From the NCBI GenBank assembly GCA_963821385.1, contig CAWGDK010000008.1:155909-219908 (forward strand): 64,000 bases of DNA. Direction: 5' to 3'. The DNA comes from an uncultured Gemmatimonadales bacterium. GTDB taxonomy: Bacteria; Gemmatimonadota; Gemmatimonadetes; Gemmatimonadales; GWC2-71-9. Numbering within the stretch: the stretch's first letter is position 1; the number at the start of each line of letters is the position of its first letter. Shown one piece after another: positions 62,059 to 64,000 of this stretch. Below the pieces are notes generated by a model. It searched no databases, had not been told where the DNA came from, and saw only the letters and a list, made by a program, of their open reading frames with translations. The position numbers and the translations under genes are program-made.

Positions 62059-62421
62059 ATGGATTTAGCGCAGCACGTTGCCGCGAATCTCGAGATCTCC
62101 GCTTCCGTTGCCGAGCGGGGCGTTGGGGCCATCCTCAATGCCGTGCGGATGGTCGTGCCGCGCGACACGTTCGAGCGCGTCAAGGGAGTCGTGCCCGACG
62201 CCGAGAGCTACATGGGGCGGGCACTGATGAGCGCGGCGCGCACCGGGGAGATGCCGGGCCCCACCGGGCCCTCGGGGTTGATGCGCGCGCTGATGACGGC
62301 CGGGATCAAGCACGAGGACATGCCGCGCCTGGGACGGATCGTGCTCGAATACCTGCGACCGGTGATGGGCGAGCAGTCAGTGGAGCATTTTCTCGCGGTG
62401 GCCCCGGCGTTGCGAGACTAG
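62059..62421 (+). CDS. Hypothetical helical protein (DUF2780-like)
   Basis: 120-aa ORF; AERGVGAIL..V....F..V...VPDA pattern. Confidence 0.55.
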   Translation: MDLAQHVAANLEISASVAERGVGAILNAVRMVVPRDTFERVKGVVPDAESYMGRALMSAARTGEMPGPTGPSGLMRALMTAGIKHEDMPRLGRIVLEYLRPVMGEQSVEHFLAVAPALRD

Positions 62422-62451
62422 AATCCAGGGATTGAGAAGAGTGAAGGAGTT

Positions 62452-62794
62452 GTCACCATCGGTGACAGTTCAGCCGAGACGCGGCTCTCAGCCGCGGACA
62501 ACAACGTGACGGTGGTCGTTTTTCGCGGCTAATAGCGCTAAAGCACTTCCTTCGGTCGCCGCACTCGGCTATCTGTCGCTTAGAGCGACGGCGCCGGTCA
62601 CCATCGGTGACCGTTCAGCCGAGACGCGGCTCTCAGGTGCGGACAACAACGTGACGGTGGTCGTTTTTCGCGGCTAATAGCGCTAAAGCACTTCCTTCGG
62701 TCGCCGCACTCGGCTATCTGTCGCTTAGAGCGACGGCGCCGGTCACCATCGGTGACAGTTCAGCCGAGACGCGGCTCTCAGCCGCGGACAACAA
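62452..62794. repeat. 145-bp tandem repeat (2.4 copies) of multi-hairpin REP/BIME-like units
   Basis: Units start at 62452, 62597 and 62742; only 3 mismatches (all in unit 2); hairpins GTCACC-ATC-GGTGAC, CGCGGCT-CTC-AGCCGCG and GTCGCT-TAG-AGCGAC. Confidence 0.95.
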
Positions 62795-63221
62795 TCGTCG
62801 TCGCGCTCTCCTCCCCGGTTTCCATCCCCCACTGCCATCCCGCTATCGCCTCCTTAGGATGGTGCCTCGCCTGGTCGCACACATATGCCCGCGCGGCACC
62901 AAGCGCCTTCGGACTCACCGATTCGACGTTGTAACCCTTGGCCCAGCGCAGCGGTCGGGTTGTTGCGTGCCCCTCTCGGTTCGCAAGGGTCGCACTACCT
63001 CCCTTCAGCCGCTGCAATAGTCTCGAGATGCTCGTGGTGGGATGGAGCTGCAGCAACAGGTGAACGTGAGTCTGGACGATCCCCAACGCGTGGAGACCGG
63101 ATCGCTCTTGTTGCGCAACGGCAGGGAGATACCGGGCCAGAAACGTGGCGACGCGGGCGTCGATCGTCGGTAGCCGCCCGCGGGTGGTCCAGACGATGTG
63201 GACGTAGAGACGATCGCGCAT
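62778..63221 (-). mobile_element. tnpA: IS200/IS605-type Y1 HUH transposase TnpA, probably REP-associated (RAYT-like); no tnpB
   Basis: LYVHIVWTTRGR, THVHLL (HUH), LKGGS, WAKGY..SVS, AYVCDQARHH (catalytic Tyr helix). Confidence 0.9.
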
Positions 63222-63311
63222 CGACGGGAACCTGGAGCGCGGCGGCCAAACGACATAGCCAAAACATGGCGCAAAGGGCCTGAATATTTCGCGTCTGATT
63301 CACGCGTCGCC

Positions 63312-63434
63312 TTTCGCGGCTGATAGCGCTAAAGCACTTCCTGCGGTCGCCGCACTCGGCTGGACTGTCACTGAGAGTGACGGAGCACCGCGTCGCTTTA
63401 TGCGACAGATAGCCGAGACGCGGCTTCAGCCGCG
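63312..63434. repeat. Upstream copy of the REP/BIME-like unit with an inverted core
   Basis: Arms match the downstream units in direct orientation; the core 63362-63410 matches their core only as reverse complement. Confidence 0.9.
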
Positions 63435-63566
63435 ACCAACGGAGCGCGACAAGCGGGTTTTTGTGACGTGATCTATCCCGTGAGCCCTTTCCCCCTAGAT
63501 TCCCCCTCCCATGGCACACCCCTTGCCCGAACCACTCGATACATGCCCCACAGCCCTGAATCGTCG

Positions 63567-64000
63567 ATGACGGTCGCCATCGAACCCGCCCGCCCGGCGG
63601 ACCTGCCGTCGATCGTGTCGCTGCTCGAACGCGGCCATCTGCCGCTTGCCGGCATCGAGGCGCACGTCGAGGCCGCGCTCGTGGCGCGGGAGGGGGCGCG
63701 CATCGTGGGGTGCGCGGCCGTCGAGCTGTACGACGACGCGGGGCTGCTGCGCTCGGTGGCGGTCGATCCTTCCTCCAGAGGTCAGGGACTGGGGATCAGG
63801 CTGACGGAAGCCGCGTTGGCGCTGGCGCGCCAGCGGGGCGCCCAGACGATGTACCTGCTCACCGAAACCGCCCTGGAGTTTTTTCCCCGGTTCGGATTCC
63901 GCGCCATTGCGCGCGACCAGGTGGCCACGGCGGTGCGGCAGTCGGCCGAATTCACGGGTGCCTGCCCCGACACGGCCCAAGCCATGATGGCGGAGTTGTA
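63567..64000 (+). CDS. arsN2: GNAT N-acetyltransferase, ArsN2-like (stop codon cut by window edge)
   Basis: Not in the ORF track; translates MTVAIEPARPADL...GLLRSVAVDPSSRGQGLG...YLLTETA..FF.RFGF...SAEFTGACPDTAQAM. Confidence 0.8.
   Translation, partial: MTVAIEPARPADLPSIVSLLERGHLPLAGIEAHVEAALVAREGARIVGCAAVELYDDAGLLRSVAVDPSSRGQGLGIRLTEAALALARQRGAQTMYLLTETALEFFPRFGFRAIARDQVATAVRQSAEFTGACPDTAQAMMAEL

Follow-up and report, generated by a model that had tools for sequence, protein, structure and literature searches.

Does a lone tyrosine (Y1) transposase gene embedded in hairpin repeats belong to an ordinary insertion sequence, or is it the settled partner of repeats that it spreads, as in REPtron (REPIN–RAYT) systems? 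The question is raised by a locus in a 64,000-nucleotide stretch of DNA, here called the window, from an uncultured Gemmatimonadales soil bacterium whose 3.2-Mb genome (G000) is 79% complete. A first-pass annotation had proposed a candidate new REPtron-type system in which a domesticated TnpA acts on a complex four-hairpin substrate. The features of the locus are collected in Table 1.

Table 1. Features of the transposase locus, numbered along the window
Feature	Coordinates	Strand	Basis
Host gene encoding 120 aa, with a weak DUF2780 match; lies outside the element and serves as synteny marker	62059..62421	+	Profile search
145-bp tandem array, BIME-like: half element, then two inverted REP doublets	62452..62794		Tandem Repeats Finder, alignment
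REP unit 1: hairpin B, spacer, CCGAG (62474), hairpin A	62452..62496	+	
REP unit 2, enlarged hairpin A*, about 23-nt insert	62524..62590	-	
REP unit 3; departs from unit 1 at 3 positions and has a damaged hairpin A	62597..62641	+	
REP unit 4, A* type	62669..62735	-	
REP unit 5; hairpin A overlaps tnpA last codons and TGA	62742..62786	+	
tnpA, Y1/HUH transposase, 147 aa	62778..63221	-	ORF list, Pfam, NCBIfam, alignment, predicted structure
REP unit 6, A* type, inner half of upstream doublet	63315..63381	-	
REP unit 7, outer half of upstream doublet	63391..63434	+	
arsN2 host gene, a GNAT acetyltransferase used as synteny marker; extends beyond the window	63567..64000	+	NCBIfam, synteny

An IS200-type transposase without tnpB

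The tnpA product matches Y1_Tnp (PF01797, 70.3 bits) and passes the NCBIfam IS200/IS605 model (NF033573; 65.7 bits, cut-off 55), and its score against the RAYT model (NF047646) is 24.7 bits, under the cut-off of 80. No tnpB lies beside it, the flanking genes being the DUF2780-like gene and arsN2. The description of a lone IS200-like TnpA lacking tnpB is therefore borne out. Residues H52-V-H54, Y113, and Q117 align to H64, H66, Y127, and Q131 of IS608, and the motif YVCDQARHH reads as Y---Q--HH, which is subclass-1.2-like. Across 40 homologs, H52, H54, Q117, and H121 are invariant and Y113 is at least 90% conserved. The protein carries WAKGY, not WQ, and its tail after residue 130 varies across the homologs.

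The predicted structure (mean pLDDT 90.8, about 52 in the tail) has a fold whose best matches are ISDra2 and IS608. As a single chain, the model superposes more closely on monomeric RayT (RMSD 2.8 Å) than on IS200-type chains (5–14 Å), a difference we discount because helix swapping is invisible in a single-chain model. The residues that PMC3479197 lists for the IS608 dimer persist in the 63-member clade described below: the P73 equivalent in 51 of 63 proteins, a hydrophobic residue at V77 in 62 of 63, I/V/L/A at I113 in 62 of 62, and S/T at T115 in 62 of 62. This retention makes an IS200-type dimer the likely working form of TnpA.

A two-hairpin repeat unit in inverted doublets

Downstream of the gene, Tandem Repeats Finder reports a period of 145 bp in 2.4 copies (96%). 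Array units 1 and 2 have three differences and the third piece equals unit 1 for just 53 nt, so the array, previously described as of three units, consists of two units and a 53-nt partial. That piece indeed supplies the tnpA stop codon (62778–62780) and the codons V-V-R-G, an overlap we regard as incidental because the tail is variable in homologs and low-confidence in the model. Upstream of the gene, an element at 63306–63440 aligns to the array unit over 137 columns at 82% identity; its middle segment lies inverted. The same element thus does occur on both sides of the gene, although what was taken for a ~120-bp four-hairpin element consists of a shorter unit in inverted doublet form.

Comparison of relatives' flanks defined this REP unit of ~45 nt as hairpin B, ~5 nt, GCCGAG, 1–2 nt, and hairpin A. 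In the window, it folds as two hairpins with CCGAG unpaired. The 145-nt array unit folds with a z of −3.6, and 0 of 200 shuffles were equally stable. Two inverted REPs placed back to back give the four hairpins, a REPIN-like doublet. Of the seven REP units in the window, five lie downstream of tnpA (a half element plus two doublets) and two upstream (one doublet). Many orthologs are flanked by half units, which favors the two-hairpin REP as the substrate over the four-hairpin structure first proposed.

The ~23-nt insert of the A* hairpins (62524–62568, 62669–62713, and 63315–63359 in the window) also occurs elsewhere in G000, at C8:229729 and in unrelated repeats on C5 (C5:547037 and C5:557793), and at loci L148, L161, L164, L210, and L215; it recurs in G387, in G397, and within one paralog-type repeat from G393. 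Its core resembles the class 3 REP core. Together these observations suggest that modules may have been exchanged between repeat families.

Candidates of other kinds were considered and set aside. A CRISPR-like array was ruled out, as two spacers are identical; a structured RNA was rejected when Rfam gave no match near threshold; and an attC-like gene-cassette array seemed unlikely, as ordinary chromosomal genes lie between the solo units (ORF list and family labels, by eye). The hairpins might also be RNA-level regulators (terminators or stabilizers) whose link to the gene is incidental, a reading that suits their intergenic position, often downstream of genes. We hold it to be very improbable given that a promoter/terminator scan came back empty, without a terminator-like site, and Rfam gave no family, that orthologous intergenic regions have the window family, another family, or none, and that units stand in both orientations beside the gene.

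Integrity and age of the array

Tandem doublet arrays with periods of 96–234 bp were present in 7 of 7 congener regions, which had been picked for clustered matches. Because tandem arrays recur in congeners, we regard the array as ordinary BIME-like amplification. The near-identity of its units had been taken as a sign of recent amplification; that argument is not supported, since near-identical tandem units are normal in BIME arrays (PMC3333891) and the family is small (19 units).

An assembly duplication would be a simpler source of near-identical units. Among the listed contigs, none crosses the entire array, and run X3 gave a low-depth contig in which the left flank abuts the end of tnpA, the two units being absent. 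Against duplication, the units carry three differences, congeners have similar arrays, and contigs from two other runs cover parts of the array, one (X1) spanning 62590–62740 with one difference and the other (X2) 62386–62607; these two runs come from the same study, and each has under a third of sampled words in common. The 145-bp array is unlikely to be an assembly artefact, and to duplication as such we assign almost no probability. The X3 contig suggests a low-depth allele without the two units.

Solo repeats and paralogs in the source genome

G000 contains 19 REP units at 8 sites, of which 12 lie outside the window locus at 7 sites, and one copy of the window tnpA among three Y1 genes in all. 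These counts describe a single gene with dispersed solo units instead of many gene copies with none, and with an assembly duplication also disfavored, neither of the findings named beforehand as fatal to a REPtron reading was made. All REP units except one lie at the end of contig C8 or the start of contig C3. The counterparts of these two regions form one 60-kb stretch in G397; hence, the spread of REP units looks local. When empty sites were mapped for four solo positions in G393, G395, G397, and G398, no ends emerged, the intergenic DNA being too diverged.

The two Y1 paralogs, 47.5% and 30% identical to the window protein, each have their own palindrome type on both sides. One (C8:224340–224705) has four solo repeat copies and the other (C2:14305–14670) has none by the pattern used; the repeat subfamily of the former has its solo copies at C3:7977, 23286, and 23453 and at C8:240708. 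A separate palindrome family (at C8:229–232 kb, C1:148–176 kb, C5:520–526 kb, C6:349 kb, and C9:19–25 kb) occupies some of the same intergenic regions. The site upstream of a dnaX-like gene (C3:14745–14840, compared with L224, L225, and L223) is a hot spot for different repeats: G000 has the window REP family there, G395 and G397 have paralog-type repeats, and G398 has heptamer repeats.

Conservation of gene and repeats within the genus

Orthologs were found in 11 of 24 genus genomes, one copy each, at 70–82% identity to the window protein. Eight lie just upstream of arsN2, seven of them divergent and one inverted. The orthologs of G104 and G380 adjoin grpE, the latter about 4 kb from arsN2, and that of G387 is on a different contig. 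Against the window gene, dN/dS is 0.05–0.17 in 10 of 10 pairs, at dS 0.8–2.9; purifying selection of this kind acts on active transposases too. Ortholog divergence follows that of neighboring genes only weakly (rho 0.68 with p 0.045, and rho 0.49 with p 0.18; n = 9, non-independent).

The repeat pattern occurs in 19 of the 24 genomes, which are kin and mostly fragmentary: in 11 of 11 with an ortholog (2–17 matches) and in 8 of 13 without (1–15 matches). All five genomes without a repeat match also lack the ortholog. Among the eight genomes at least 90% complete, repeat counts are 10, 17, and 17 with an ortholog versus 0, 0, 0, 1, and 7 without. Repeats in genomes without a detected ortholog count against a gene-driven spread; most of these genomes are incomplete, yet one (G382) is 93% complete.

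A repeat-associated clade in Gemmatimonadales

The relatives of TnpA are Gemmatimonadales, and 83 of 151 family genomes gave a match at 1e-5. From the best loci of several searches, rather than from every match, 93 proteins were taken, identical cores being merged; a 92-row tree was built after two short rows were dropped and RayT was added. In it, a 63-member clade (support 96/95) nests within a group whose proteins bear the subclass 1.2 signature (90/82), separate from the highest-scoring PF01797 proteins. The outgroup proteins are IS200-like by score alone, and the stand-ins for subclass 1.2 are proteins bearing the signature given in PMC6006769, not that survey's members. In this sample, the clade appears to be confined to Gemmatimonadales. 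Searches of phages and viral contigs gave no match, and plasmids gave distant Bacteroidota matches only. The TnpB check took in 38 of 49 ORFs, 11 from 1.2-like loci being left out, and found no TnpB in 29 downstream ORFs of at least 200 aa in the clade or among nine adjacent ORFs in the outgroup.

Placement is less settled in a tree of 35 rows that includes RayT and two class 3 proteins: the grouping with subclass 1.2 is absent but not rejected (p-AU 0.26). There, class 3 is separate in the best topology, although a joint clade is likewise not rejected (p-AU 0.25), and RayT falls weakly (59/80) within the clade on a very long branch, a position taken as an artefact.

Units with CCGAG and a hairpin lie within 300 nt of 56 of the 63 clade genes, and on both sides of 35 of the 52 with full flanks. 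The same units were found in 6 of 104 control stretches; among other genes, they lie beside 4 of 17 that are subclass-1.2-like and 0 of 13 that are IS200-like. As units were selected on CCGAG and hairpin A, hairpin B is the sole independent test of the unit: it is present in 40 of 55 clade units versus a shuffle mean of 2.7 (maximum 8 in 500), with varied stems. A G precedes CCGAG in 54 of 55 units, though stems vary, and an A-rich run follows hairpin A on its 3' side (A at +1 in 42 of 48).

This conservation bears on whether the repeats, historically those of tnpA, now owe the array and solo copies to host slippage, recombination, or another enzyme (e.g., the Ssn GIY-YIG nuclease, whose putative repeats lie in these intergenic regions too). 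Slippage is permitted by the perfect 53-bp direct repeat in the array, and the X3 contig lacking two units, the clustering of other repeat families in the same regions, and the A* insert in unrelated C5 repeats would all agree with such an account. We nonetheless find it improbable. The CCGAG foot and the two-hairpin spacing are kept across the clade while the stems change, which indicates recognition by the neighboring protein, and the C8:224340 paralog is accompanied by a distinct subfamily whose solo copies are separate.

G017, a genome of another genus, carries three copies (L013, L014, and L015) within 80 kb on contig C10, at dS 0.15–0.9 and 81–95% amino acid identity. Their similarity stops about 3 nt past hairpin A, the outer hairpin, on each side; the whole element therefore probably still moves in some lineages. 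The copies lie in heptamer-repeat tracts, and L014 is without the conserved Trp of WAKGY. Could the entire system then be a slow autonomous IS200-like element, with repeats as its ends, solo doublets as gene-less MITEs, and nothing domesticated? The G017 copies favor this, as do the gene's relocation in 3 of 11 congeners, its inversion in one and absence from 13 of 24, and the IS200 cut-off that TnpA passes. Units at clade loci face outward more often than inward (98 versus 47), and an outward-facing doublet is what an outward-facing element would leave minus its gene. Set against this are a single copy in 11 of 11 congeners, at the same locus in eight, at dS 0.8–2.9; the lack of near-identical copies; the absence of phage or viral-contig matches and the restriction of plasmid matches to distant Bacteroidota; and ends that are usually inverted, whereas IS200/IS605 transposition is strand-specific in the account of PMC8266576. 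We judge an autonomous element unlikely, if the most serious of the alternatives. The label of a domesticated TnpA survives in part: the single copy and conserved locus uphold it, but domestication is incomplete, given the three dispersed G017 copies and the 3 of 11 orthologs elsewhere.

Several side features of the clade and its relatives were recorded. A motif, G[TC]GA[AT]T[CT]NG, lies 33–82 nt before the start of 16 of 63 clade genes (shuffle mean 0.5, maximum 4; the upstream stretch in the window is 63222–63310). In many clade genes, a -10-like hexamer also precedes the ATG by about 10 nt, which suggests that their mRNAs may be leaderless. Many relatives of 266–299 aa contain two tandem Y1 domains (P0138, P0139, P0141, P0149, P0151, P0154, P0168, P0174, P0193, P0205, and others) and look like single-chain dimers of subclass-1.2-type TnpA. 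By eye, several hairpins flank each of two other proteins with the 1.2 signature (L136 and L028) on both sides, and a third (L135) has one long palindrome, on its upstream side only, so a link to hairpin repeats may be general for subclass 1.2. The literature searched, with most subscription journals outside its scope, held no publication on this clade.

A proposed mechanism and origin

The account we consider probable is that of a single-copy, locus-conserved IS200-type gene accompanied by CCGAG-tagged two-hairpin repeats, which its enzyme would recognize, cut, rejoin, and spread on single-stranded DNA. Anatomy, catalytic residues, copy number, locus, solo units, and the clade-wide link are observed, and the mechanism is an analogy drawn from IS608 and E. 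coli TnpA-REP. Y1 enzymes bind a folded single-stranded hairpin, a 5' tetranucleotide sets the cut site, and a tyrosine link rejoins strands (PMC8266576). By this analogy, TnpA would bind hairpin A, and probably B too; CCGA(G), which sits at the expected guide position, would select the cut site, for which the guide rule of PMC8266576 predicts CT or TC; and Y113 would make the covalent intermediate. Cutting and rejoining of the repeats would spread inverted doublets and build the tandem array, and solo doublets would be former whole-element copies minus the gene. The 145-bp unit could have been added by local cut-and-rejoin, steps through which BIME array growth has been proposed to occur (PMC3333891), or by slippage on the 53-bp direct repeat, the two being equally possible. 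Some observations sit awkwardly with this account: the copy number is low, with 19 units versus hundreds for classical REPs and all but one near the gene; repeats occur in 8 of 13 congeners without a detected ortholog, including G382; and the three G017 copies, at dS 0.15–0.9, are IS-like.

A bolder reading, to which we give somewhat less than an even chance, is an independent REPIN-type origin caught midway. A dimeric IS200-type clade would read a bipartite two-hairpin CCGAG signal, still hopping in the G017 lineage and settled elsewhere, where it would spread only gene-less doublets; a dimer seated on two inverted units would give a coordinated two-end cut. The E. coli structure paper (PMC3479197) notes that, with a monomeric enzyme, it is not obvious how cuts at the two BIME ends would be coordinated. 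REPIN–RAYT systems are said to have arisen seldom, perhaps just a single time (Bertels and Rainey, bioRxiv 10.1101/2021.07.10.451892). If the bolder reading is true, this clade, whose IS200-side genes number at least 63 and share a defined repeat grammar, would represent one more origin in addition to class 3, which would suggest recurrent transposase-repeat domestication. The likely dimer and the short, defined substrate make the question of two-end coordination testable.

Comparison with known systems

Published REPtron or REPIN–RAYT examples include E. coli TnpA-REP with its BIMEs and the group 3 systems of Pseudomonas, Stenotrophomonas, and Marinomonas (PMC3333891; PMC8266576; bioRxiv 10.1101/2021.07.10.451892). 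The window system resembles them in its single-copy Y1 gene at a conserved locus (8 of 11), cognate palindromes on both sides, ~100-bp inverted doublets, tandem arrays, dispersed solo units, an unpaired tag 5' of a hairpin, and paralogs with their own repeat families. It departs from class 2 RAYTs in having Y---Q in place of Y---NP, in retaining the IS200 dimer residues, in a foot of GCCGAG (tag CCGAG) in place of GT[AG]G, and in a two-hairpin unit; the window protein has no BLASTP similarity to E. coli RayT. Classical REPs number in the hundreds, versus about 20 units here.

From subclass 1.1 (IS608, ISDra2, and IS200), the protein shares the fold, the catalytic and dimer residues, and the NCBIfam cut-off passed. 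The locus differs from that subclass in its single copy, conserved position, lack of tnpB, dispersed solo units, and seven two-hairpin units around the gene, mostly inverted, in place of two small subterminal hairpins. Subclass 1.1 averages 4.8 copies per genome at 99.4% identity (PMC6006769).

Class 3 TnpA (Solibacter, Planctomyces, and Legionella) is the published IS200-side REPtron precedent (PMC6006769). With it, the window system has in common a CnGA foot, a W[TA] motif, and the IS200-side REPtron layout, and many clade units share their first ten bases with class 3 REPs. It differs in Y---Q versus Y----Q and in lacking the extended N-terminal core (155 aa), and no BLASTP similarity links it to L303, a class 3 protein with NHVH and YVIEGQ. 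L303 and L261 were the two class 3 TnpA genes among 80 metagenome loci, the former with inward-facing class 3 REPs on both sides. The class 3 REP sequence was found in 0 of 301 Gemmatimonadota genomes searched, and no Y1 gene was found near 74 viral class-3-REP loci or in a Legionella plasmid stretch. The single copy, solo units, and conserved locus thus sustain the REPtron-type layout of the original proposal, whereas its novelty yields to the class 3 precedent: the window system is not a new kind of system.

Its nearest relatives would be in subclass 1.2 (Quentin et al. 2018, PMC6006769), with which it shares Y---Q--HH, a short core, and low copy number; the window protein is 33% identical (E 9e-22) to a Bacteroidota protein with the 1.2 signature. 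The larger tree nests it among 1.2-signature proteins and the smaller tree does not. In the clade, W[AS]KGY replaces WQ, the ~30-aa conserved C-terminal domain is absent, and 56 of 63 genes are flanked by REP-like repeats, whereas Table 1 of PMC6006769 enters "no" for REP sequences in subclass 1.2. Judged on its sequence features, the window system appears REPtron-like in its working and nearest to subclass 1.2, and neither a class 2 RAYT, a class 3 system, nor a typical IS200. The REP/RAYT partnership has probably been rebuilt here on an enzyme branch surveyed in that table as REP-less.
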